Below are positions 31,101-50,248 of a DNA stretch of 64,000 bases, piece by piece (position 1 is the stretch's first letter; every line of letters starts with the position of its first letter). A model generated the notes under the pieces. The model made no database searches. It was not told where the DNA came from and was given only the letters and a program-made list of their open reading frames with translations. The DNA comes from Balanoglossus misakiensis (lineage: Eukaryota > Animalia > Hemichordata). Position numbers and translations under genes: made by a program. Location: contig CM082585.2 in assembly GCA_040954595.2 (NCBI GenBank), positions 8,201,404-8,265,403 on the forward strand, in the 5' to 3' direction.

Positions 31101-34032
31101 TCGGCTTTTAGGTGAGACAGGTAGAGACAGACACAAGCAGCTAGTAATCGACTTGTCTGGTTACCGTGGAAACCCTCATCAATCAATACACTTGGTTACC
31201 ACGGCGGCCGAAATTTCACGGCTCTCTGAAATAAGCGCCGTTGCCTCTTGATGCGCAAGTCTTCGAGATTCTAGAACGTTTCTGCCAAACCCGGTCCAAA
31301 TTGGGAGTACATAAAACGGGAGTTTAAGTAGCCAGTCTTTACAATAAAAAAAATGAGGCTAGCTATCTGTGGCATGTGCGTTTGCCTGTTTCTTTATTCA
31401 GAGCACACACGAAACTGTTGGTGTCGGAATGACATCATGTCTGGTTTTCCCAACCACCTCACAATACACACTTTATTCTTTGTTGCCATGGAAACTTTTT
31501 TTTCTCACATCTCAATGGAGAGTTATGTGGTTTCAACAGACAGGTGAGTCTGCCCCAAAACCAGTCATCGACACATCTCCCAGAACACCTATTCCTTATT
31601 TAGGTCAACAGTAACATAGACGATTTGGAATCTTTTGATTGATCGCAATCTGAAAATAGTTTGTCTATGGATCCCATTGTCTTAATTCTGCTTGTACTGT
31701 TACTGCTGCTGCAACTTGCACTGAATATGAGAAGGGTGTTTTGTTGCGTCTGGTCAACCAATCAAAACATCTGGAATCTGAGAGGCGTTATTTATGACTG
31801 AAGTCTGCACACTTGACATTGCATGAGGTCACCAAAGGTCAAGTTGTCTGTCATCTCGAGAAAAAAATAAGGTCAGCCTTTGTGGGGGAATGCATAGATG
31901 CTGTGCTATATGCAGTCTTGTTTCACAATATTGGTAATCTGAATTCGCAACATGTGTATGTATATGACCGCCGGTGAATATGGCATTATTTGATTGAATG
32001 TGGACATCAGTCTCAGAGTAACATAGCTTATCAAACTAGTCTTTTGCATGCTGTTGAGCATTGTTAAGACTGTCAGATGATAAAATACTGCCTGCAAGGT
32101 AGATCTCCGGAAATGATAAAAATCACTGATTTAATATCGAGGCCTTTCTTGATTCATTACAAACCCTATCAAGATTTTTTTTATCACCCTGATAATTCGA
32201 TAACATTAGTATGTGCTAGCATAATGGATATTTTCCACATTTCCATGAACTGACGGACAAATTTGATCAGACATAAAATATCTTTAAATTTCGATTTTTT
32301 TTGTGGGCCACTGAAAGATGTCTGTGTTCAGAAGTATAATATGGTTTCTAGGGAACACATGGAAAAGCATCATCAACAGACATAATACCAAATCACTGAT
32401 GAAGCCATAATATCACAGACAGGGATGAATGTCAAATGATCCCTGTCAGCCATACTAAATAATTACATAGGTGATTGATCATGCTTGTCATTACTAGATG
32501 TATAAACTTTTCCCCACTTTTGTTTAATTATACATTGGATGGATTACTAGCAATACAATAATGCCCTCTCATTGACAGAACCTAAAAAATAAACTTCCTC
32601 AGAACACATCATCAAGTGTTTAAATTTTTTATTATATGTAGTTCTGGCGGCAGGTCATAGCAGATGAAACCAGTCATAATGGAGATTGAGGGATTTCAGG
32701 GAAAAGTGTTTCATGTAGTGTTTTCAATTTTGCAATAGTAGGTCTTCTGTTAGATTGGTTTATACTTATCATGGTGGTGCACGGTACCAATGATTTTTGT
32801 TGTGTTTTGGTACTTTTTAAAGATTTTTATCGATTTATCTTCGAAGAGAGAAGCCAGAATGTTTTCATTAATTTTTAACAATATTTTAGTTTTAAGGTCA
32901 TGACTGGATTTTTTTCTGGATTTTGAAGGGTGAAGACAGCCATAGCAGAGATTTCATCTGCTTCTCGTCTGGTCTTCAAGCACAGGAGATTGTTTCCGGA
33001 TTGACACTGCTTGATGCGAAAATTTGCCGCTTTGCCAATCGACCCCCGCTCCAAATTTCACATTTCGGGACTGATATATGAATAGTCTGTTTGCGTCAGA
33101 AGTGATATTTTACACCGGCACTGCCCCCACAGTGTTGTTTTAAACAAGGCAGCATGTGGCATTGAGGAGAGTACGTGCTCAGCTTGCGTTGCCGAGAGGC
33201 AATGAGGAGAGAGAGAGAGAGAGTGGGGAATGAAACGTGTCTGGATTTGGCAGCAGGAGTATAAATGTCTGGTTGATCTGTCTGCATATGTACATTCAGA
33301 CAGTCCGTGTTTTGACAATAAATACACGGCACAATAGAAAGTGACATTGAATCTGGTATTACTGCATTTGCGCCTACAAAGAATAACCTTGGTGGGCGTG
33401 GGTTGATTACTGTTGGCTTTGATAGAACATTAACATGCACTATTAAATCCTGGGGGCCGAGTTGGCCAATTTTCGTGACAGCTGCGAAAATCAAACAGAA
33501 ATATGTCGGAATATACAAAACAATATGTTGCGGTGTGCATGAGCACGACATGGTGAAAACTACACCCTAATGGAAAACAGACCAAACGAATGATTTGGCA
33601 GGGAAGGTTCTTTAACGGTGAAATATTCAAATAAACGGCTGTCCTTGTATGAGTGGCCCTGAAGGGAGACGTCACCTTTCACATGCAGATCGCTCAGACA
33701 AAATCTAAATATATACCTGTGATTTGGTGGGGTAGTATGTATGTCAGCTGTTCTCGCAGTTGCGATTGTTGTTAATGTACTATGCGACATACCCGGAAAA
33801 TGGGACAATTTTGCCTGGATTAGGGGAAAAATATTAGAAACATGAAGATAAAATGTGAGTCAGTGTGTTTTATATTTTTCAAGGTTAATTCCAGTGGCAG
33901 TGCACACTGTATGTACCTGAACTGAAACGTGGGAGGGGTTATATAGCCAAGCAAGAACTATACCTGCCACTGTTATTTTTGATAGAAAGACACTATTAAT
34001 TTTATGTCTTTCTCTTTTTTCTTATTCCGCAG

Positions 34033-34408
34033 GTTGCAAGCAAAGCCATTGTGAGGTGCTAATAGTTTAGAGTGAAGCAGTACCCAGATTTGAGTTCTCC
34101 CCCTGGTATGCAGTTTTACTAAGTGCTCCTACATTTCAGTCGTATACGTCTTATAAACGTATAAACCAGTCAGCCAGAATTCATGAATGACTTGTGACGA
34201 GACAATAAGCAATATTCACTGTTCTTTTTTCAAAGTACTCCAGCAAGCCACAATAGCAGCAGTTCCGATTCCCTTTTGACTTGGCTGGGCAGTCCAATTT
34301 TTCCACTACTTGGGCTCTTTACGCTTGCCGGCTGAAGCTCTATGCTAGCTCCATCGCCGCTTATATAAGTACTGGTTTTTAGGATATATCACACACAAAA
34401 ATTTTATT
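34033..34408 (+). other. MBNL: MBNL 5'UTR part of the first coding exon (exon 34033-34567)
   Basis: Strong polypyrimidine tract and ccgcag acceptor ending at 34032. Several short uORFs precede the ATG at 34409. Confidence 0.7.
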
Positions 34409-37400
34409 ATGGCACTGCGGGACAATCGATGGTTGACACTTGAAGTTTGCCGAGAGTTCCAGCGTGGAACATGTACGAGGCCCGACACTGAGTGCAAGTT
34501 TGCCCATCCATCCAAATCCGTCACAGTAGAAAACGGTCGAGTTACTGCTTGCTTTGATTCGCTTAAGGTATGTATAACATCGTCCCAAACCCAGGTTTAA
34601 GCTCTGACTGCATGGTCAAGTCTTAATTAACTTTTTTTTTTCTTTGCTGCAATCATTGTATTATTTTTTTTATTTTTTTCTCATTGTTCGAACGCTTTGA
34701 CTGACCTGGCTCATTGCATGCATGTCCTAAATGTGCAGCAATGCTTCTGTATACAGCTGAGGTGATAAAAATACCAAAAAAGAAATCCATAATTTTATGC
34801 ACGTATATGGATAACTGTCCAGAATTTGCCATCTATTTCTAAAAAAAATAAATATTGGTACAATGCAGCTACTGCTAAAATCTACACAACCACAGAATAT
34901 TACAATGTCTGTTGCCATAACATCACATTTCTGTTGCAGCTGTCGGTTCTCACAAGTAACTGGTTAAAAAGTCCACCTTGACTTCTGATTTCTTGCCAAA
35001 TATAGCACTGTGGCAACAAAGCAAGTCTCGGTTTCCACAGTAACATGTATATTGGTTTTTTCGACCGCCATTAAAGATGGATGCCTTCTAAGAATGCAAG
35101 AGAATTTCTTGGAAACCTACACTGATCAACTTTCAGTCTTTCTGGTGAAAAACATCTCTGCAAATGTTTTCACAGTTTTTCAGCACAATGATGCGGATTG
35201 CTTGCAGAGTGTAAATTATTTCACAAATGTTTGTTTTGTCATAGTTGGATGAACTATTAATTGATTGTGAAGTACAGACTAAAGCAAATAGTGGTAGATA
35301 GGTGGTGATATATGGTAAACTCCTCTCTTAATATCAGAATTTAGAAACTTCAACCATGGATTTGAAGATGAGAAATGGGTTGAAAGTTATAATATTATGA
35401 AATTAGCACAGTGTATCTGTAAAACTTCAAAAATAAAAATTCTTACTAAGAATAGGTAACGTACAGTACTTCTGGTGTTTGTTCTTTTGAGGTTTGTTAA
35501 AAAATTCAAATGTTCATAGAAGACTTAGCTCGAAGTGTACTCATTGGTGTAAGTCGATCAATGTACTTTTAAAATGAAAAAAATTCCTAGAATCTGAATC
35601 GCAATGTCAAATTTCCAACCTTCTTCATCATAGCTTGCGGTGTTACTGTTTAATCATGATATCTGATCATATTGTTAATGATCCCATGTCGTAGGTCAAG
35701 TTGAGCCTGTTTGCATTGTATTAAAAAATCCACAGTGTGCCCTTGTTGTTGCTATGTTTAGAATTTGTGAAGGGAGGATGTTCGTGACCTGATAGTGATA
35801 TTCAAAAAGGTCACGCCATTATTTGGGGCTGTCTAGCTTTGAGGCCTTAATATAAACAACAATAAATACCCCCAAAATAGCACCATAGTTTCCCTGAGGA
35901 AATTTAAACACATATCAAAGTAACATATTATTTGAAATTACAAACAGTCCATTCGCTGAAAATTTGATACACGCTGATTTTCTGGGAAAAAAGGGTGTTT
36001 TTTGCTCAAGGCAATCTTGTTAAACGCTTACTTTACCGCCAGTCAGGCAAATAGTTCTCAAGCAGGCAAATCACTCTCTAGACTTTCATTTTTTTCTCTC
36101 TTTAGACTACACAAGAGTGTCTGGCTGAGAAAAGCTTAAAATAGAAAAAACAGCATCGCCGTTATTTCCCTCCGTCATTTATCACAGTGTTAATGGTGCG
36201 AAAGACTACCAAACATCACATGACATGCCAGAGATTTGGTCATTTGCATAAAATCCTGATCAGGCAAAGTAACTGAAGAAGTACAGGCATTGACTCAGAG
36301 AGATGCTATTTGCAGTCAGACAACTTGGCAACCCATTTGAATGTCTGGGCCTCAAGAACGTTGAACTGTTAACACGCTGGACTTATTTAAACTATTTGCG
36401 ATTCAGACATTCCCGTTATATTTCAGTATCAGTTAACGGTGGATTTTCTTCTAGTGGTTTACTTTGTGCTGTCTGGGGCGAGAGCACTAAGGATATAGCT
36501 CTGCATTTCTAGTACACGGTAGTTCCTTCGGCGAGTCTGGTGAGATGACTGACAGCAGTCGTGCATTAATAGCCTCAAATATTCGACACAACCGCTCTGA
36601 GATTAATTTGTTTTAAGAGGTCATCCATGTGACTTTTTGTAATAATTTTGACGGTAACCACTTTTTTGAAAGGTGCTGAATTTGACAAGAATTACAAAGT
36701 GTTCATCATTTCAGTGAAGGAAAGCATAATCGGTATAAAATATAATCTGTAAATTAGTGTAGAAGTCAGATAGTACATAATTTGCAGTCATCAAATATTT
36801 TGTAAATGGAAATGTTTAATATATTAGAGAAGGGATGATCCTGACATTTAATTAATGTAGACCTAACCAAACTCTCTTTCATGCAGTCATCTCCAAATAT
36901 CATAATACAAACATAAATGAGCATCTATCTTGTAAGAAATACAAAGCCAACAAATCGATGTCTGTTTAACTTCTCTCACACATTATTTCCTTATTTTTTC
37001 TTTGCCCTTCATTTTTGTTTTCGAATTTTCGCCCGCAGGGTAAGTGCACCCGTGAAAATTGTAAATATTTACATCCGCCGGCGCATCTGAAGAGCCAACT
37101 GGAGATTAATGGACGCAACAATCTAGCGGCTCAAAAGATGTTACAACAGTTACCGTTCCAACCCCTGGTGCACGGGCCGATGACAACACACGTGGTAAGT
37201 GGCACTGACCATCCCCGAGTCTACTGGCCACCATTACATACTCTGGTACAAGGGCCAGTCACATCGCAGGGGGTAAGTGGTACTACACTAGATACAAACG
37301 CCTCGCAGCTCTGCCATGCCAGCAGCCTTCGCTTGCAATATAAAGACCAGCTGCCAATAAATACTAAAAGAAAGGCAAGTAGTTCGGACGGGGGAGGGGG

Positions 37401-40400
37401 ATTTATACATTCCCCATTTTGGCCAGTGTTGTGGGCTTGCGAGACAGGGAAGCTTAGTAAAGGTATTTTGTTAAAATCGGCAGCTTGTTTCGGCCACGCA
37501 TTGCAGTGATTGTTGCAGATCATGTTGGCTTGGTGTGGGTGCAGGGTTTTGGGCCAGTGTAGTCACATCAACCAGTGAAGGCCACGGTTACGGGTGGAGC
37601 AGTGATCGGATGTTTCAATTCATTTTGCCAGCTATGGGCTGGATACAACACAAGGCTACGCCTGGAATTATTGCCTCGAATTTCCTTTTGTTCACTCTGG
37701 GTAGTTCACAGGTCATATTTGGTTTCATAATAGCAAGTTAAGATTATTCTTGACTTCAAGCAAGACTGTTTTAAAACAGCTCTAAAGCCACGTAATTTTG
37801 AGTTCAGTGGCAGGGTTTGGGGCTATATTGCTGGTAACATCAGCAAAACAAGATGACATTTTGTGATTTGGGTCCAAGTTCATGTCTAAGTACAGTTACC
37901 ATGTGTGTTTATTTGTGGTGTTGCTAGGTCTGCTTTGTGTGCAGCTTAGATTCACAGAGTGTCTGTTTGTGTCTGCATAAAGTGTTTGGAACAAGCCCTT
38001 ACTGTTTTGTTTTTGTGTTTTTTTGTTTTGTTTAAAAGCAGGAATTGGAAAGGCACCTGGGGTGGTCACCTTGGTTGATGGGGTCGGGGGTGGGTGTGAA
38101 TTTTAATTTGCTTTGCTGATATAAATGCTTGAAATTTTACGATAGATATGATATTTTGAGTGATATGTGTACAGATCATGACCAGTTTTGTGAGATTTAC
38201 CTGTGTTGGGAGTGTTACAGAAACAGTCATCTTGGTTGAATTTGCAAGATATTCCGATTAGTGTGGAATTATTAAGTTATACTTTCATTCCTCAGACAAT
38301 ATTTGGCCTTGTCTGTGGAATTATGACACAAAATAATTGGCCATCACTTTCATGCCCTTGACATGATCACAAACCACTGACAAAGCACATTTGTCCATTT
38401 TACATTCTTCCAGAATCCACAGTTTGTGAACTCGCCACCCGTGACAACTTTCAATCCATATCTCGCCCACACACCAACTTTGCCCAATGACAACCTACCG
38501 TTGAACGTTCCTGGCCTGGTCCCCACTCCACCAATCATGCCGCAGCAGAAACTGCAAAGAAACGACAGACTTGAGGTAAGTGAACAGAAATCTGATGAGT
38601 CGCTTTGAAGGATTACAATCACTCTCGTTTCATTTCAGTTTTCAGAATAATTACAGGTATAACCCAAAGTCTTGTATAAGGCAGTAATGATGGACAAAAA
38701 TTGAGGCCATCTTTTCTGAAAATCATCATGCATGGTCACATTAAAGGTATACAGTCACCTCCAATTTACATACGCCCATATATGGCTGAAATGGAGTATT
38801 TGAGCGTTCTAAAGAACATATAGTGGCGCTCTATTTTTCGCATGTGCCAACCACTGAAAATCAGTGATTGGCTAGATCTTAATTTGCCATGGTAACTACA
38901 GCTAATTTTCCATAGGTGACCCGTATACCTTTAAATTGACCATGTAGGTTTTGCTTGGTAAAAATACTAGTATAATGAATGAATGCTATGGGTTTTTTCC
39001 ATCCTGAATATTGCATGGAAAAGAGCCTGATTGTGATTAAACGAGTATTTCACGCTTTCACTTCTCCGCACAGGTCTGCCGCGAGTTCCAGCGCGGCAAC
39101 TGCACTCGCGGCGAGAACGACTGCAAGTTTGCCCACCCGGGGGAGCACGTGACCATCGACACCACGGAGAACAGCGTCACCGTCTGCATGGACTACATCA
39201 AGGGGCGCTGCTCCCGCGACAAGTGCAAATACTTCCACCCACCACCGCACTTACAGGCACGCATCAAAGCTGCTCAGCATCAGGCTTCGCAGGCGTCGGC
39301 CGCCGCCGCAGCTGCGGCCATGGTATGTACCGAATAAAAACCCGGCACTCGTATCTCGTTTTCGTTTGCATCTTATACTAGTCTCCATTCGTTTTGAAAC
39401 AGAAAATGAGATCAGGAAACGACGACCAAAATCTTGCATGTGATTGTCGTGTTTCATGAGATTTTTATATATTTCTCATATCATGTGTTAACCATTTCAA
39501 ATCACTAGTAGACTAGACTAGATGTCAATTTGCTCATCATCTCATGCCTTTTTTATATAATTTTTGTTTAAAATTTTAAAATTTTATTTTGGTTGCGGTT
39601 AACAAATGCTGAGCTCGCGTAATCGTGCATAAAAATGTTTCTATACTCTATCAAAGTGTCTCTGTCTGTCTCTTAAATGCTAGCTGCTTTGCTGCTCTGC
39701 TGTCATCTTCATCTGACTTTCACACAAAATATAAAAACCCTCCCGTCCAACAAAATTTAATGTTGAATGTCATAGATTTTCTTCACTTGGTACACCAGTG
39801 TAACTATATGGTAAATTGTTGTCAATAAGGAATGCGAACGGCTGATGAAAACCTTGCAAAATCAACAATAAGCATTTAGCAAATTTAAATAAAGTTCCAC
39901 TGGGATAAATGTCCTACTTTGTAAGATAAATATGACAATTTTGATCATTTGCTATATGATAAAGGTTATTTCCACCCTCAATAAAATTTACCTTATTGGT
40001 TACAGTTTTTCAATAGGACTGATTTATTGTAACAAAGTGTAACAAGCACTGTTATAACATGTATCACAATGTGGTACAATGTAACACACTGGTATACAAT
40101 GCAACTGTTACTGTACAATATAACTGTATTGTACAACATAATAGTGTTATGCAATGTTACAGTTAACATGTAACAATGTGATACAGTGTAACCATATAAT
40201 ATACAATGTAACACTGTGTTACTATGTGGTATTATACAGTGTACATCTGTAGCAAGTTGTTACACAATGTTACAATATCAATTGTGAAACATTGGTGTAC
40301 ATGAATAACCACACACAATTTGTTTTCTGTCAATAACTCAAACATGTTTTGATTTTTGGCCACGATGTGAAAGTTTGGATGTTGCCTATAGCTTTGTCTG

Positions 40401-43400
40401 TCTTCACACTAAAAAAACTAACCAAAAAACTAACACCCTAAAAAAAGCATCATCCGTGCAAATATGAGTTGCCCTGCTTCCGAAACTTTCAAAACCATCA
40501 TTTCATTTAAAATCTTAATGTTTGCATTTAAATCTTGACATTCTCACTCGTGATTTGCAGATATGTATCGCCATGGCGATAGTATATCTCAAATCCAATG
40601 TCATTGTTGAGTGTTTCAGTTTGCTTTTTTATTTTCAAATCATTAATTTGTGTGTATGTTGTTGACTAGTTAGCTTGTTTTTTAAGTTGCTGGTTGAATG
40701 AATATAATTTCCAGTGTTTGTTGTTAATTGACTTTCTCTGTCTTCTTTAGTTCAAGCACCGCTGTTGTTTTTAATGCATGTATTATAACGGGTAGTGTTT
40801 TGACTGGTTGGCTTGAAGTGGAACAGTGCACCGTTGAATACTAGCGTATACTGTTTTAGTAGACGAATCATACAGTCAAGTAAAAATCTATCTGTGTATA
40901 TATGTATATATCTCAACGGAAATCACCAACCAACCGATAATTTAGTTGGCTTTTTTTCTGGGGATGAGTGGAGAGCAATGCATGTACGGCTTGTCAAAAA
41001 CTGCCACGCCCACACAGATGGATATTTCTGATCGTTTGAAAAAAAAGAAAAAAACCAAAATCCAATGCTTATACACTCTTCACTTTGTTTCTCATTGACA
41101 TAAACACCATTGGGAAGCAGGTAAATTCTATACATCACCAACAAAATTTGACCACTGTTCTTGCCTTTCTTCAAATGTTAAAACATTACCTGATTGCACA
41201 CAAATGTCTGTACTATAACTTGCTTTGTAAAAAAAGAGAAAATGAACTTGATTACATGTTTATATTACATTGCGTTGTTTGATGAGAAAGGCAAGAATGT
41301 GTTGTAAAGCGGCCTTGAAAAGGTGACTCTGCATGCCTGGTTTCAGGAATATATAGAACACCTAGCTTTGAATGAGCAGGCCGTTACATTTTTTTATTTT
41401 TTCTCTTTTTTTTTAAAACTTCGATATCACAATCAAGCTGTTTATATTTACATGTTGGGCAATGCATTGTTCTTTCTCTGATATAGGCTTTGACTGTTCA
41501 CCACAGACACCATTGATTGCATGACTGTTCACTTACATCCTCCCTTTTGCTCTTTTTTTGTTTCCCATGATGCATTGCTGTGCTTGCTGTTTATGTTAAT
41601 GACTCTGCCTGTCCCATGCTGCAATCCCATTGGCCCATTGCCATCATGTGCTACGCATACTAATAAGCTTCCGACCACGCCTGATAAGAGCAACAAGAAG
41701 CGAGCCAGAGACCCTGCCGATGAGATTATACTGGTACTGACTTGTCCTTGCTTATGTACATTTCATACCTGATTAGATTTGGAGAAAGAGAGAGAAAAAA
41801 TTAATCAAATTGACATGATATGAATTGATGAATTTTGACTATATGATGAAAAAATCAGTGATTTCATTTTGATTTGTTTGTAGAAGTTTTGTAGAAGTAG
41901 ATTAATTATTAATTGATTTCATTTTTGATTGAGACACGTTTTCAATGTTGAAGTATCATGATAGCCAAGCTGAGAGGCAGCCAAATATTTTATGATATCG
42001 TCACAGGGCTGTGTGATAAAATCTATTATAACATGGCTGCATGATCAGATGATATTACACATATATAGCATGGCAGCCTAATAAAATTCATATTCCGCGT
42101 ACATGTAAAATTTATACTGCATGGTAGTCAGATAAAACTCTATGTTCTATTGTTGTCTGATAAACTTTGTTACATGTGGAACAATTTATATGTGCTTCAC
42201 AATGAAACTGATAAAATGGCTGCCTTATATCAGATTAGAAAGCGAGAAAAATATTTTGAGTGATTTTTGAGAAAAACAAATGATTGTTTTAATTAAATTC
42301 CTTTGCCATATTTTTGTATTTCTGTAGGCACTTCCTGGTATGATACCACTGAAGAAAGGTCCTGGGGCAATGTTTCAAGGTGCTAACGCGTATCAACAAG
42401 CCTTGGCTAATTTTCAATTTACACACCAACCTTCACACTTTGTACAATCACCATGTAAGTGTGTGTATACAGAACGATATCAGACAACATAATCAGTATG
42501 TTTTGGGTTGAGTATTTGTCAGGAAATTTAGGTCTATCACAGTTCTATCATTAGACGTTCTATCATGCAGGTTTTTCAATTACAAATGGCAAATTTGTCT
42601 GCAGTTAACGACTGCATGTATCAAATTCAAAATGGCCAGTACACTCAGGGATATATGTCCATCTGTGGGGAACACTTATAATTATTGGTTTTCTCTTTAA
42701 CCAGGATAATGAACGCGTATGTTTCTTGTTTAGTTTTTAAGTTCCATACAAACATCAAAAACTGACAAGATGTTCTCTTTTCTGAAATGAATCCATGTTT
42801 GTGTGTAATGATCAGATTCTTTTTCAGATCTTAGGTGAATTTTTTCTCAAACTGGGTGTCTCAAATTCACAGTCCTTTCACCCCGTTTCCCTGAAAGTGG
42901 TTTCAACCACACGTGATTGGAAACGGTAGAAGAACATATGTTTGTATCGCAATGTATGTTCATATTAGAGACATACTGAATGTGTCTGAACTTTACACCA
43001 AATTGATAATCACATATAAATGATATTGCATCAATTAACTCTCATCGACACAGTTAGTATTTGATGAATGGATGGGGGAACATTCATTGGAACTTGTATT
43101 GTTTTGAATCGACTGACATTGAACAATGTCAAAAAGGTCATCTTTTAAATTTTAATTCAGATGACAATGTATCCGATTCATTTGAAGTATACAGCCATGT
43201 TGATAATGTTAAGACTGCTAGAGCATTGATAAAAGTGGCAGATCATTAAAACCAACCAGATTACACCTTGAAGACAATCCCTTAACCCCCAACTTCAGAC
43301 TTGCGACAGACGTGCAAGGTCTGACGTACATGCACGCTTCGTAGAAAGAAAAATCACCACAACCTTGAGGTAATTCTGTAAATTGGTTTACGCCCTGCTG

Positions 43401-45432
43401 CGACTAAAATGATCTCCGACGATTCCAATGCTCTAACAGTTCACTGTTACAGTAGTGTTTTTCTTGACCAGTAAGTGTGCGTCTTTCTAATTTTTGCTTT
43501 TTTCTCTTTTTTTTATTTCATGATCATCTGGCTGGGTACCTGCTTGCCATTGATATATTTGCATGTTGCTGGCAAACGTTGGTTGTTGCTTGCGTCTGCT
43601 GTACGTTGTTGCTCCCTGCCTATATTATAGTTCCCATGATGGCCCCCATCCCTACTGCTGGTGCTCAGGCTGCTAGTGTGCCATACTACAATGCACAGCA
43701 TCAGGTAGAAAATTCATAGTTTCATTTTACGTTGATTTTTCTTATTACTCTAGTTACGATTTGTTGTCAGTTGATCGCAGCCGACCAGCTGGTACGGACA
43801 ATTTGCATATAAGTCATCAGTTACACCTGGCTTTACAGTGAGACAGGAGTTTCACCTTGAGGTTAATTCTGTCCCCACCTGGTTGGCTATTTACTGGTGA
43901 TGCTATGTCAGTATTGGTTCCTTTCTGAAGAATCGGAATAAATCTAACCATAAGCAAATTACAATGAATTAAATTTGTGACACGAGTATGCATAATTCAT
44001 GACCATGGAAATGATTAAATTTGAGTTTGACTACACATTCTAGTGTACTCTACAGTCATTTTTGACTGTCATGTCCCATAATCCTTTGCAGCCCTGAGGG
44101 TCAAACGGGCCCAAAAAGGAGACCAATTTGAAACGGTGTTTGTTTCGACCAATTAGAGAGGACGCTTCCTTGTGCGCTGCAGCCCGCATTTTGCAATTGC
44201 TAGTTCGCAGTTGTACTGCTGCTGCTGCTGTAAAATTCAATATGGCTGCCGAAGCCTAACCTGGTGGGAACACTGCAAAGCATTGTGGGATATTTAAATC
44301 TGCATGACAAAGGTTTTTTATGTCTGGTTATTAAATTTGGTTATTCTAGTTTAGATATACAGACTTGATTGCGTCACTTTGTTTGTTTGCCTTCAAATGC
44401 TGACTAAATGAAAATTCCATCTCATTTTTTCAGTTGGCAGAAACTTTGCCTGTATGTCGTGACTTCAAGGCGGGAAATTGTAAGCGGCCAAACTGTCGTT
44501 ACGTACATTTAACTGAAGGTGAGTCTGGTTAGAGTGAGCAGTTTACAATGCAACCGGGCTTCCAGACTTTGTGATGTGGTGTCAGCTAAAACGCCAAACC
44601 AAATTGACTAATTTGAGGTTTATTTATAGCACATCTGAGATGAATTTGTGCGAATTTTCATTGCGAACATCATTTAGGAAGGAACATGGAGAGGGTACTT
44701 GATTGGCACGCCATTCAAGCCTGCATTATCACTTCACAACTTGCATGGAAAAAAAAATGCATGCAGTGAAATACATTAGGACTCTGTCATCTAAACCGTC
44801 AAATATGACGATATGAGCTGTGATCAGTACCGGCCGAACATTAAAACAATTCAGCTTTGTTTTAATCATCAAGTGGAGAACCCTGCCTGCATGTGAGCTG
44901 TTTTTCGTTGTGTAAATCATGATACAGATGGACTTGACGAGTACACACGATCTGTCTGCTTTTAGCTTAGCACTGTATTAACAATCGTTATTGTAATCTC
45001 TTCCATATAGATTATGTAGAAGTTATAGATGGTAAAGTGACTCTTTGCCGTTATGCGGCACAAGGCAGGTGTACACGACCCAAGTGTAAATTCTATCATT
45101 TACCAACAGTTCACAGTGGTGCAAGCGTTCCAACTTCGATACCAGTTCCAGTCGTCACAATGACGGTGTAAATTCCTTCGTCTGATTTTACTCTTTTTTT
45201 TTCCTGTCTATGAATCAATGCATTTTTTCTATTCAACAGTGTCCTTTTTTATTTCTTTTTTTTCTTTTTTTCTATGTACATGGCAGATCATGTAGAAGTA
45301 GTTGATGGTAAAGTGACTGTGTGCCGCGATGCTGCAAAAGGCAAGTGCACCCGCCCCCTCTGCAAATATTACCACATCCCAGTCCATTTGTTGGCTCTAC
45401 AAGCTGCTGAATTGAATCGGCCCGGGTGCTAG
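34409..45432 (+). CDS. MBNL: Muscleblind-like RNA-binding splicing regulator with six CCCH zinc fingers (~407 aa with all cassette exons and terminal exon B)
   Basis: Exons: 34409-34567 ([33 protein letters not shown]...VTACFDSLK); 37039-37194 ([29 protein letters not shown]...); 38414-38575 (...[11 protein letters not shown]); 39074-39322 ([21 protein letters not shown]...[32 protein letters not shown]...AAAAAAAM); 41668-41733; 42328-42454 (...YQQALANFQ...); 43631-43704; 44434-44518 (ZnF5); then 45011-45171 or 45287-45432 (ZnF6). All junctions are GT-AG with consistent phases. [13 protein letters not shown] and LEINGRNNL are diagnostic for MBNL. Confidence 0.96.
38745..38930 (+). mobile_element. 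Kolobok-type MITE, copy 1 (186 bp), in an MBNL intron
   Basis: TTAA|AGGTATACAGTCACCT ... AGGTGACCCGTATACCT|TTAA; homologous to 50249-50435. Confidence 0.9.
40025..40280. repeat. Degenerate low-complexity TGTAACA/TGTTACA-type repeat
   Basis: Recurrent tgtaaca, tgtacaa, tgttaca and tacaatg units. Confidence 0.6.
41507..41667 (+). promoter_or_regulatory. MBNL autoregulatory intronic splicing element (AG-exclusion zone, distant pyrimidine tract, YGCY cluster)
   Basis: No AG from 41507 to 41665. The pyrimidine tract is at ~41536-41566, followed by about 8 YGCY motifs up to the acceptor. Confidence 0.85.
41668..41733 (+). CDS. MBNL: MBNL 66-nt cassette exon with basic NLS-like motif (counterpart of vertebrate MBNL1 54-nt exon 5)
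   Basis: [22 protein letters not shown], phase 0/0, with an AAG acceptor (ctaataag) and donor CTG|gtactg. It lies between the poly-Ala-Met exon and the YQQALAN exon. Confidence 0.85.
43476..43630 (+). promoter_or_regulatory. Second AG-free, YGCY-rich 3' splice-site element upstream of the 74-nt MBNL exon
   Basis: No AG from 43476 to 43628. Branch-like tttctaat at ~43484-43491, then a U-rich tract, then tgcttgcc, ttgctg, ttgcttgcg, ctgctg and ttgctccctgcc. Confidence 0.7.
44434..44518 (+). CDS. MBNL: MBNL exon encoding a fifth CCCH finger
   Basis: ttttttcag|[28 protein letters not shown](G)|gtgagt; spacing C-x7-C-x4-C-x3-H; in frame with exon 43631-43704. Confidence 0.88.
45011..45171 (+). 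CDS. MBNL: MBNL alternative terminal exon A (ZnF6a)
   Basis: ccatatag|[53 protein letters not shown]; phase 1, intact CCCH. Confidence 0.75.
45287..45432 (+). CDS. MBNL: MBNL alternative terminal exon B (ZnF6b)
   Basis: Long U tract, then ggcag|[48 protein letters not shown]; phase 1, intact CCCH. Confidence 0.85.
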
Positions 45433-45452
45433 GCTAGTCTGCCTTATATACC

Positions 45453-45480
45453 GCCAAGCCAAGCCAAGCCAAGCCAAGCC
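45453..45480 (+). repeat. (GCCAA)5 repeat at the start of the MBNL 3'UTR
   Basis: gccaagccaagccaagccaagccaagcc. Confidence 0.9.
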
Positions 45481-48400
45481 TGTGCTCACAGCTGTGGGGA
45501 AATATCGGCATGTTCGCAGAGTGATGTTTTACATTGCAGCTTCTATACGCTTGCCATGCTGAACGAGAGGGACGCTTTGCTTAGCATGGCTTTATATTCG
45601 CTACACTTCAAGGGGATTTTTCGTTTTCATTTTCATTTTTTTAAACTGTCTTTTTCTCTTTACAGTTTAAAAAAAAACAAAATTTCAGTACATGGAGAAA
45701 TAGTGAGAGCACTTGTATGTTTTCTCTTCAACATAAGTTTGACTTAGATTTTTTTGAAAAATTTAAATGATTCATCTAACAAGCTAGTTAAAACTAGCGT
45801 TTTTTTGTGTGTATTTAGCCGTCTGATATAATAAGACTTATTTGCCTCTCAAAAGAGACACATTGAAATGAGTACGTTCCTCTTCTGTGACTTTTTTTTA
45901 CAATATTATTTTAGGATGTAAAAGTTATTTTGAAAGTTAGAGAATTTTATAATGTTTTATTTGTTTATTGATGTATTTTCTCGGACTTACCTTGAGATGA
46001 GACCGGAGGGAGGGTCAAAACGGTTACCGCGGTAACCACGGACAATGATGACATGCGACCTGCCATAGTGGGTGTGAGCCACAAGGGTTTCACCCGAAGT
46101 AGAACCTAAAACACAAAAGATAAAAAAGTACATCATTTTGACATAGTGTAGCTATTAACTGCCATCGATCACAGATATAAAAGTTCTCAAGGCTACTTGA
46201 AGAACAGAATCAACGACGTACTTAAAAAAAATTACTGCATGAAAAAAAATAATTGGATGGCATGGCTGCCTTAACTTTCATGTTGTCATGGCAACTCGTC
46301 ATAGCATGAATGAAATCTATCAATGCTGCGATTTTTCAAAAAAAATGCATAGTGCTGCATTATGCTTTTTAAATGTTTTTTGGAAGAAAAAAATAATAAT
46401 GATGAAGTTTTTAAGATTAAGTCAATTTACAATTAAATTGTAATCATTTAACCAGAGATGGTGGAAAACTGATTAACAATATTGAACATTTTTCAAATAT
46501 GTGATTTACAATGGAGGGAATATAGCTAGTACTATATTATAATTGTGCACAAGTAGTGTTCTTTTTACTCCGAAAGCTTATTAAATAATTGCATGAGTAA
46601 CAACTGGGGACTGCTGTTTTTATTGCTGAAAGACAACTCCACAGATTTTTTCCCCTCAACATAATTTTAGAAACAGAATTTCTCATATTTTGAAAAATGT
46701 AACAATATAGAGAGGTGTATGTTTTTATATAGCTTAATAACAGACAATATTTGATTCAATTAATTTGCTGTGCATCTTTTTTTTGGTCTCCAAGACATCT
46801 TTTCTTCTTCCATAAATGAATATTCAAACATTACAAGGTTTTTTCAGAATCCAGTTTATGTAGTAGTGTACATGTAAATTAAACCACTGCTGTTAGTCTT
46901 TGTTTGGAGTGACTGCTTTTGCGAAATGTGGGCCTGCCTCGAAAAATAACAGAATGTCAAGTGGCACTGAAGAGCTCAAAGCTTATGGTGTATGCTTCTT
47001 CACAGATGAATATTTATATATTGGTCCGAGATAAGGAGATATTATGAGAAAAAAATGATTTCAAAAGAAATGCTTATTGAAATTTTGAACGTGGACACTT
47101 TGTGATATGCTTTTGTCCATAAAAGCAATAGCAGAATATCCTGAGAGCAGTTATTAACAAACAAATAATAACACTGTATGCTTATTGTCATGTATCTTTG
47201 TTTGTTTCCACTGTCTTTCTATTCATGAACACTTAAAATTTTGAGAAAACATAAAAAAAATAATGGAATTTTTTTCTTGAATTCTCTCTGAAGGGTGCTT
47301 TGAGACAGAATACGATTGTAAATGTCTTCGGCTGGGCTGCACGTGCGCACGTACAGGGCTCCGTAGTCATGGCGTCATTGTGACCGCGCAAAAAGTCTTT
47401 AAAAACCGCTCCTGTGTTGTGCCAAAATATAAATTGTCACGTCAAGGCTTTTTCTAAGTTGACTCCCTCGAGCGAGTATCGTAGGTGCCACCCAGCCGAT
47501 GACAGACTTCTATAGAGGTTAATACTGATGCACCATTACACAATTTATAACCACCAGTAACCGTAGCAACCAGTTATTCAACGATGTGTGTTTTTTGACC
47601 ATTTTATTACAGTAGGATTATACTAGTCACGTTTGGATTTAGGGTGCATCATATTACCATCAGATTTACAAACACCTTGACTTTAGACTTAAGGATTAAG
47701 GATTAATAATATAATTATTAAGTAGTGGATTATGGTGTCTGGTCTGTAGTGCTGCATTCTATGTAGGTTATAATACAAAGCCATTACGAAAAAAAAAATT
47801 ACTCCAAAAAAGTGTAGACGTGTGTATCTATCTATCTATCTGGGAGATTTCAATGCTCACCGAAAAACAGTCACTGCTAAAATAGTATCAGTAGTTTTCT
47901 AGATGTCCGTATTTTGCTGCATTTTTGTGTCCGATTCTTGTCAGAAAAAAAAAATTGAAATCTCAAACACCTGCTTAGCGATGGTAGTTCACCCAATCAC
48001 AATGCTGCAAAACGTCATTGATAGTAGCTGACTTTAACCAACAAACTATGTATTTAAAAAAATACCACACGAGTACTACAGTATATAAGCATCAACTCAG
48101 TCAGTGTATTTTTTGACATCATATGACGAAAAACGAGTCTATCCTGTAGCATATGACTCTAAAAATCAGTCGGCTTTTCTTGTGTGCATTCATTTCTATG
48201 TACTCTGAATAACCAGACAATAAAAGGCAGAGTATCTATAATCAAGAATTGTTGTCTTGCTCCTCTTTTTGTTCCTTCAAGTCCCAATAGATGCCACACA
48301 TACATTTGCATCCTTTGCATGGGTTTACTTTCAAACTTAGATTGGTTCCTAATGTGGTATACACAAACTTTCCTCATTCAAGCCTAGCCACATTTCGTCT

Positions 48401-50248
48401 CATCAAAAAACTTCCAACTCAGTGTTGAGGGAATTCCCTTACAAGCAAGGTGCAGCAGTATCCATGTTGAAATATTAAACCATCACAAACTATTTTCGAA
48501 TGTCCTATAACTCGAAAACTCATAGAACAATATGACATTGATTTGGGGCAACATGTGAAGCAAACACACAAATTCACAAAAGAACCAAAAAAACTTGGAA
48601 CCATTACCACACCTGCTCAAATCTGGAATGAAACTTCAGTCACACATAGGAATACATGCATGTCTGTGGTCATTTCACACACATGGGTTTATTTGTACAG
48701 TAGTGCATTCAAATTTCACCCAGTAGAATGCTGCGGAAAATTAGAACCAGATGCAGACAGACAGACAGTATAGTGCATTGACCAGACTGTCAAACACAAA
48801 ATACCTTCAATATACATTATTTAGACCTCAACCTTTATACACAATCATGCATGTGACTGACACATACATGCAAATACAATTATAGTTATTTTTTATGATA
48901 TTCACTCAATTCTCTTAAAGACTACACATTAGATGTATAGCGAACAACTAATAATTTTTTGGATCAACTCATCATTCTGAGGTCTTGCCGTGCAGAACAA
49001 ATTATGAGCACAGGAATAAACTCAAAGAATGCAGATATATCCGTTTCAGTGGAAAATTATTTGAAAGTTGAAATTCTATTGTTACCCTTAGCTGGGTAGC
49101 ATAATGCTATGAATAGCAGCGTTTGAGAGAGAATTCCGTGAGTATATATATGTGCTTGTTTAGCACCATATGGTTTCCACTCACACTGCGCAAGTGGCTT
49201 GCACAGCAGTTCCTAAATTGTGACATCATTATTTGAACTAACTTTTTTCAAATTAAGAGGTTTATGGAAGTGAATTATGTGTGGTGGCTTATTTGCCGGG
49301 GGAAAGAGCGTTCTGAAGGAAACAACTTCACATTCTGATCACTGTTTGTGATTAATGGCGTAGAAAGCGTGGGCAAGTGGTCATTTTGCGACTGAGTGGT
49401 TTAAAGTGTGGATCAAAAGAGTTCCTGATGTGTTTGGGTCAATTGCCAAAAGCTAAAAGTCACCCACATCTCAAGATCTGTTCAGATTTGCATTTGGGAC
49501 ACAAATCTTGAGTCACCGCAACACCTCCTACTTTTTACTTGACAAACCTTTCTAAGAATGCACTGCACTCCAGTGCCAATGTCATATATTGGTTAGGTTA
49601 GACCAGTAGACTATGGAAATGGGGAATTGTGATAGGGTTGGAAGGGTATGGTTGGCCCCAAATCCTACCAAGTTGATATTCATTCCTATTACCCCTCACC
49701 CCCAATATCCTAGTGTATGAATCCAACTGTAGCAATGAAAACAACGGGAATAAACCAAATTGGTATTAGTGGAAGGTAAGGATTAAAAAATTTAGCTTCA
49801 GGAGATGAGAATGTGCACACTACCGCAAACATGCAGATAACATTGAAATTTCAGTGTTTTGTGATGTGGTACATGTGGATAATCCACTGTTTCCTGGTGA
49901 AACCTATATACCCGTACCATATGTCTGGTATGACAAAGTGTACTTTGGGGCATGTGAATAACCGGTGACCTTCAAAGCAATTTCCCTGCCAGGCAAGCCA
50001 AGGCAGGCCAGTCCAAGGTAACAGCTGTGACCCCTGTGTCGATCACTGCACAAAAGGATTTTTAACCACGGAAAATATCCGGTACAGATGCACAACTGTA
50101 CATACATCACTGAATGTGCGGGTTCACCCATGCATCATGCAAACACGTCCGAGCACCAACCGCACGCCATGATCTGCCCCCACCTAAACATGTTAGTGTA
50201 AATACATCTTGGCCCATGCAAGCGTATGTATGTCACATAGAGTTTTAA

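Follow-up and report, generated by a model that had tools for sequence, protein, structure and literature searches.

The muscleblind gene of Balanoglossus misakiensis carried in our window (the whole 64,000-nucleotide stretch of DNA analyzed) encodes six CCCH zinc fingers, and its sixth finger is present in two adjacent, intact copies that we call A and B. Our preferred reading, which we consider moderately probable, is that this six-finger Muscleblind joins one finger-5 donor to the acceptor of either copy, so that the resulting proteins are predicted to bind RNA differently through the third finger pair. Splicing of the finger-5 donor to the proximal acceptor would give form A, with B remaining in the 3′ UTR, and splicing to the distal acceptor would skip A and give form B. 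The duplicated finger itself is real, ancient, and lineage-wide; it is present in RefSeq as unnamed isoforms and is apparently undescribed.

Matches to PF22628 in six stretches of the closest database protein indicated that the fingers form three tandem pairs and that the duplicated finger is indeed finger 6, as the initial annotation had proposed. The best database matches to the gene were Ptychodera flava muscleblind-like isoforms. Upstream of the duplicated segments lie eight coding exons (34409-44518; these and all features below are on the forward, +, strand), which were 79 to 100% identical to P. flava isoforms per tblastn segment. The first seven, delimited by isoform alignment, comprise an exon for ZnF1 and the first part of ZnF2 (34409..34567), an exon with two donors that encodes the rest of ZnF2 (37039..37272, also located by repeat search), a linker exon (38414..38575), an exon for ZnF3 and ZnF4 (39074..39322, also located by ORF translation), an optional 66-nt exon with a KKR motif that is missing in some RefSeq isoforms (41668..41733), an exon between the second and third finger pairs (42328..42454), and an exon ahead of ZnF5 (43631..43704). 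The eighth (44434..44518) encodes ZnF5, is common to both forms, and ends at a phase-1 donor serving both copies of finger 6.

Several features identify the gene product as a Muscleblind protein. The first two finger pairs of the closest database protein resembled MBNL1/2 structures (PDB 5U6H, 3D2N, 3D2Q/3D2S, and 2E5S; E values of 5e-47 to 1e-35). An RD/KWL-LEV box and a KxQL/NGR motif, which are named for Muscleblind proteins beside the first finger pair (PMC5041496), were present around the first pair in both the window translations and the alignment. In addition, the window exons have the reported Muscleblind arrangement, in which an intron splits the first pair and one exon holds the second pair (PMC3315501). 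By homology only, the window protein would be expected to bind YGCY RNA and to regulate splicing. Elsewhere in the gene, we observed another internal duplication at 37152-37284, where a 55-nt repeat recurs 78 nt apart and both copies terminate in GTAAGT, giving donors after 37194 and 37272; use of the latter yields a longer form with 26 extra residues, which appears in four RefSeq isoforms of P. flava. A degenerate AC-rich tandem repeat with inverted arms on its flanks lies in the intron that follows the second finger pair (40025-40277). No Rfam families were found within positions 33000-50000 of the window.

The two copies of finger 6 are contained in a 97-nt direct repeat (45009-45105 and 45285-45381; 75% identical with 276-nt spacing), which is the largest repeat family within positions 36000-50000. 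Copy A (45011..45171) follows a proximal acceptor AG at 45009-45010, encodes a derived, CRY-type finger with a Pro/Val/Thr-rich tail, ends in a TAA stop at 45169-45171, and matches P. flava isoforms X1, X3, X4, X7, and X9. Copy B (45287..45432) follows a distal acceptor AG at 45285-45286, encodes an ancestral, CRD-type finger, ends in a TAG stop at 45430-45432, and corresponds to RefSeq isoforms X2, X5, X6, X8, and X10, with 47 of 48 residues identical to X8. With either copy attached to the donor after 44518, the frame stayed open through an intact C-x7-C-x4-C-x3-H finger and a copy-specific tail up to that copy's stop. The copies are thus adjacent, homologous, both in phase 1, and each equipped with an acceptor, features expected of tandem-duplicated 3′ exons. 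These direct-repeat and frame analyses bear out the initial annotation in describing two paralogous phase-1 segments 276 bp apart, each with its own acceptor, intact CCCH motif, distinct tail, and stop.

Over 32 aligned codons, A and B had 13 identical codons, 9 synonymous differences, and 10 nonsynonymous differences (dN of 0.20 and dS of 1.34 by NG86; 0.24 and 0.99 by LWL85). The 40 nt preceding each acceptor agreed at just 14 positions, which argues that the duplication is old. The earlier claim that synonymous differences argue for selection found modest support from these counts alone, and it is conservation across species that upholds selection itself. We conclude that selection on both copies is supported.

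We analyzed the sequence around the two acceptors for features governing their use. Neither AATAAA nor ATTAAA, the canonical polyadenylation signals searched for, was found between the A stop (45171) and B (45287), and no GT[AG]AG donor was found in the spacer (45172..45286), which comprises the 3′ UTR of the A form and the U-rich tract of acceptor B and includes an extra AG ending at 45239. A pair of alternative last exons, each with a 3′ end of its own, was considered and is not supported, as the proximal copy lacks a canonical polyadenylation signal. With neither a polyadenylation signal nor a strong donor between the copies, A and B are likely two acceptors in one last exon, which fits the initial suggestion that both forms can share one 3′ UTR. 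By motif scan, this shared 3′ UTR would extend over 45433..46437, its putative 3′ end being set by the first downstream ATTAAA (46432), and further ATTAAA/AATAAA-type candidates lie at 46580, 46878, and 48219. On this arrangement, A transcripts would carry B in their 3′ UTR with no downstream junction to trigger decay.

Pyrimidine content before the acceptors was comparable (12 of 17 positions for A and 11 of 17 for B). Acceptor choice may be regulated, and RBFOX is a candidate repressor of the proximal acceptor, given that C. elegans FOX-1 represses an mbl-1 exon via an upstream GCAUG (PMC10773944). The 492-nt intron before A (44519..45010) contains three TGCATG motifs (44742, 44758, and 44888), compared with 0.4 expected (reached in 0 of 300 shuffles), in what was one of 65 motif-by-region counts. 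TGCATG was also enriched across the whole gene (20 in 34400-46500 versus 7.0 expected, 0 of 60 shuffles; 6 on the opposite strand and no excess in the flanks), and the three intronic motifs therefore need not act on acceptor choice. No enrichment of YGCY was seen in the upstream intron (4 versus 5.8 expected); the motif was absent from the spacer and mildly raised just past the B stop (9 versus 4.8 expected, 9 of 300 shuffles). Long-range pairing that would loop out A, as in the competing-structure control of pip and PGRP-LC, did not exceed shuffled sequence: the best intron-spacer duplex (-20.6 kcal/mol) was equaled by 19 of 60 shuffles, and the longest exact intron-spacer complement, 11 nt and mostly a run of A, was reached in 16 of 500 shuffles. 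Read-through of the finger-5 donor (44519-44845) reaches a stop four codons on, with an ATTAAA following at 44840, and a five-finger form made in this way is possible. Five-finger endings are annotated among the listed proteins of amphioxus (17 of 47) and crinoids (3 of 20) and in none of the 10 P. flava isoforms.

To compare the two fingers across species, we used an alignment of finger 6 with 28 rows, eight of them of the A type, and 32 columns. All eight A rows had the pattern C-R-Y-x-x-Q-x-R, K or R preceding the third cysteine, and a net charge of +5, whereas all 20 non-A rows had C-R-D and a net charge of +4. A thus has four fixed nonancestral residues (Y, Q, R, and K/R, each in 8 of 8 rows). 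The second position after the first cysteine, occupied by Y in every A row, was acidic (D or E) in 461 of 516 distinct fingers, some of them from proteins other than Muscleblind. Fingers 1 to 5 all have an aromatic residue no more than three positions from the first cysteine; 19 of the 20 non-A sixth fingers have none there, and A supplies one. B, the type carried by corals, protostomes, and amphioxus, is the ancestral copy and A the derived copy, a polarity that the initial annotation had missed.

Counting from the cysteines, the A/B changes fall at the equivalents of MBNL1 D223, K226, R228, K233, and Y236, with the position of the tyrosine side chain in A taken from sequence register only. 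MBNL1 Y236 intercalates a GC step (PMC3880588), and M222, Y224, and K226 hold RNA in simulations (PMC9780971). Several of the differing positions are therefore equivalents of MBNL1 ZnF4 residues reported to touch RNA, as the initial annotation had anticipated in calling them likely RNA-contacting. The change at the Y236 equivalent, from Y to F, is conservative and is absent from crinoid A, and our literature search turned up no account of what MBNL1 D223 does. According to NMR work cited in PMC12969270, RNA is bound solely by the second finger of a pair, the position that finger 6 occupies in its own pair. The swap of an acidic residue for tyrosine and the net charge of +5 rather than +4 lead us to predict that A and B differ in RNA binding, with form A showing either tighter binding or a relaxed base preference, in addition to its different conserved tail. 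The proposal in the initial annotation that splicing tunes the RNA specificity of this factor is partly supported, a difference in specificity being predicted. Since MBNL1 splicing activity is dominated by the first pair (PMC13044900), a change in the third pair may have small effects.

The same residues could be interpreted in the opposite direction, with A a weakened or repurposed finger whose pair stays folded but no longer reads GC steps, leaving the third pair dialed down or used as a protein-contact surface. A lacks the acidic residue seen in most fingers, and the annotated five-finger endings of amphioxus and crinoids imply that reducing the third pair is a used option. However, A retains the intercalating aromatic residue and the invariant arginine and gains both positive charge and an aromatic residue, and we regard this interpretation as doubtful.

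A slightly stronger rival, although still an unlikely one, places the selected difference mainly in the tails, through localization or partner binding, with the finger changes secondary. A tails terminate in a comparable hydrophobic motif of the P-V-V-T/N type across acorn worms, brittle star, sea star, sea cucumber, and crinoids; with the two tails unlike and that of A conserved, selection may have acted in part beyond the finger. Conservation of the B tail was observed between Ptychodera and Saccoglossus, and membrane docking has been reported for the MBNL1 C-terminal tail (PMC12969270). Furthermore, Ambulacraria are reported to be the sole bilaterian group without the double KR localization motif (PMC10773944). 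The optional exon at 41668-41733 has KKR and the next exon at 42328-42454 has KKG where amphioxus and arthropods have KR, and this KKG agrees with the reported absence in Ambulacraria, the clade with the duplicated finger. On the other hand, a new tail needs no finger copy with four fixed nonancestral residues, and the B tails of hemichordates are unlike those of echinoderms.

A tree of the 28 aligned sixth fingers, rooted on corals, addressed the age of the duplication. The eight A rows formed a single clade (95/96) on a stem branch of 0.52, and the B rows were unresolved among outgroup fingers in the same tree. Identity over 29 core residues was 21 to 27 between A fingers of different species and 21 to 24 between B fingers of different species, compared with 16 to 21 between A and B within a species; A of the window matched brittle-star A at 27 residues and its neighboring B at 21. 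A separate hemichordate duplication was rejected, as forcing hemichordate A and B together gave a p-AU of 0.022. Forcing crinoid A and B together, as for a crinoid-only duplication, gave a p-AU of 0.057 in this 32-column tree and was not rejected. Because A forms one clade and its motif, among named proteins, is confined to hemichordates and echinoderms, the exon appears to have been duplicated once before these phyla split, with both copies retained. The simplest reading would thus be a single duplication in the stem of hemichordates and echinoderms, whose common ancestor lived more than 500 million years ago.

After this duplication, A appears to have changed fast and then to have stayed almost fixed. 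This pattern bears on the idea that A and B do not differ biochemically and that both were retained because each is the copy spliced in some tissues. The 21 of 29 core residues common to A and B and the conservative nature of several changes are consistent with such a partition of expression, but the long A stem branch, after which radical changes became nearly fixed, fits changed function better than drift, making equivalence improbable. Under our preferred reading, a more ambitious version may be proposed only tentatively: hemichordates and echinoderms would have kept, over half a billion years, a splice switch in their single Muscleblind protein, with the A finger bringing a new RNA motif preference through tyrosine as a stacking residue missing from the ancestral sixth finger, and RBFOX-controlled acceptor choice would redirect targets between tissues.

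Both endings were found in RefSeq models, which are predictions, of Ptychodera flava and of four echinoderms: the brittle star Amphiura, the sea cucumber Apostichopus, and the crinoids Antedon and Anneissia. Among the proteins listed for each species, five ended in A and five in B for Ptychodera (of 10), 3 in A, one of them from a non-RefSeq model, and 16 in B for Apostichopus (of 19), 8 in A, 1 in B, and 1 otherwise for Antedon (of 10), and 6 in A, 2 in B, and 2 otherwise for Anneissia (of 10). Amphiura had at least 18 A and at least 3 B endings among 21 matches listed at two loci, one cluster being represented by its best 15 of 24. Only A endings were seen among the listed proteins of Glandiceps (5 of 5) and Acanthaster (2 of 2). 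Only B endings were seen among those of Saccoglossus (2 of 2, one of which is a chimera beginning with A) and in the sole sea urchin protein examined, and the 47 listed Branchiostoma proteins had 30 B endings, 17 others, and no A. The initial annotation held that an exon A degenerate or absent in close relatives would count against it; A was instead intact in seven named hemichordate or echinoderm species, together with B in the RefSeq models of five.

The A motif occurred in 50 of the 370 proteins compared, of which 47 were named, all from hemichordates or echinoderms, and 3 were unnamed. A profile search of 1.84 billion representatives yielded no further A-type finger among the best 150 of 397 matches. 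The B-type finger was found in corals, protostomes, and amphioxus, and a metagenome scan recovered one locus, L001, with a spliced-looking protostome-type transcript that has B only.

As the endings in these five species are taken from predicted models (XP_070539095-107 in P. flava), we weighed whether one copy is not truly spliced and the isoforms are annotation artifacts. The P. flava A and B models form five pairs, one for each upstream variant, and this pairing may be an enumeration by the annotation pipeline. In Saccoglossus, A is seen only as its first 18 to 19 residues, in XP_077862515.1, in which the first part of A runs into complete B at the site equivalent to CAAG|GCAGGT (window 45061-45070). 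This fusion may be an annotation artifact or may mark a genuine donor inside the segment, use of which would add length to the linker joining fingers 5 and 6; in either case, a chimeric model implies that annotation is imperfect at this gene. Nevertheless, an exon out of use would not stay intact and conserved from phylum to phylum as both copies have, and we give this explanation almost no credence.

The third finger pair is not particular to these phyla, as we also found it in corals, amphioxus, tunicates, arthropods, molluscs, flatworms, basal nematodes, and a green alga. Muscleblind proteins are described as having one or two finger pairs (PMC10773944 and PMC13044900). Isoform X1 of Ciona has six fingers; a Ciona "X1" was used in PMC5041496, where finger number is said to vary. 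A divergent extra pair is mentioned for fly MblF (PMC3315501), and the six fingers of a tephritid fly protein suggest that this is the third pair. The third pair is therefore probably not wholly new to print. The green algal protein, from Closterium, carries six fingers of the Muscleblind kind, the sixth being of the CRD type, which suggests that the three-pair layout is older than animals. In L001, the main frame at 1383-1713 ends in GHPPSVPRF and a stop, and fingers 5 and 6, the latter intact, are encoded by the same bases in a second frame. Similar PRF tails are found in scorpion, spider, and tick isoforms, so four-finger protostome forms may come from second-frame reading of the finger-5 exon. 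A sequence from a spider, labeled a toxin by its source database, is probably a misannotated fragment of a Muscleblind third pair.

Compared with known systems, the window gene resembles MBNL1-3 in its first two finger pairs, the flanking boxes, the optional KR exon, and extensive alternative splicing of its own transcript. Vertebrate MBNLs, however, have neither the third pair nor the duplicated last finger, which is likely chosen by acceptor, and their known isoform changes affect localization, linker, or pair number and not the sequence of one finger. In Drosophila mbl, splicing likewise changes finger content, and isoforms rescue targets unequally (Irion 2012, PMC3315501), but whole pairs are put in or left out, and the available excerpts describe no paralogous one-finger swap. 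The RefSeq isoforms of Ptychodera flava, Amphiura, Apostichopus, Antedon, and Anneissia have the same two endings as automatic isoform numbers only. Our search of a largely open-access literature yielded nothing on a duplication of a Muscleblind finger exon, on how old it is, or on what it does.

Tandem-duplicated alternative exons are known in DNA-binding factors, including the forkhead exons of FoxP1/FoxP and the 3′ zinc-finger exons of lola, fruitless, and mod(mdg4). Duplicated exons that are used singly are widespread, and terminal examples occur in Drosophila pip and PGRP-LC (PMC9013439). In these systems, an exon is duplicated, one copy is used per protein, and recognition residues are changed; the window gene has the duplicated exon and the changed residues and would likewise use one copy per protein. 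Those genes encode DNA-binding factors, enzymes, or receptors and mostly use cassette exons or last exons that each have a separate 3′ end, whereas the window gene encodes an RNA-binding splicing regulator in which half of a back-to-back finger pair would be exchanged, apparently by two acceptors within a single last exon.

Muscleblind proteins, the factor that is lost in myotonic dystrophy, are central regulators of splicing, and the share of each finger in their specificity is only partly settled. Two natural versions of one finger with few fixed differences in an otherwise identical protein offer a ready test of CCCH-finger RNA preference, and the gene draws attention to the third pair of corals, protostomes, amphioxus, and tunicates, which is left out of current reviews. 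The duplicated finger is also a molecular character common to hemichordates and echinoderms. If the splice switch is true, a splicing factor in these animals would be recoding its own specificity, and it would do so by exon duplication where vertebrates have three paralogous genes.
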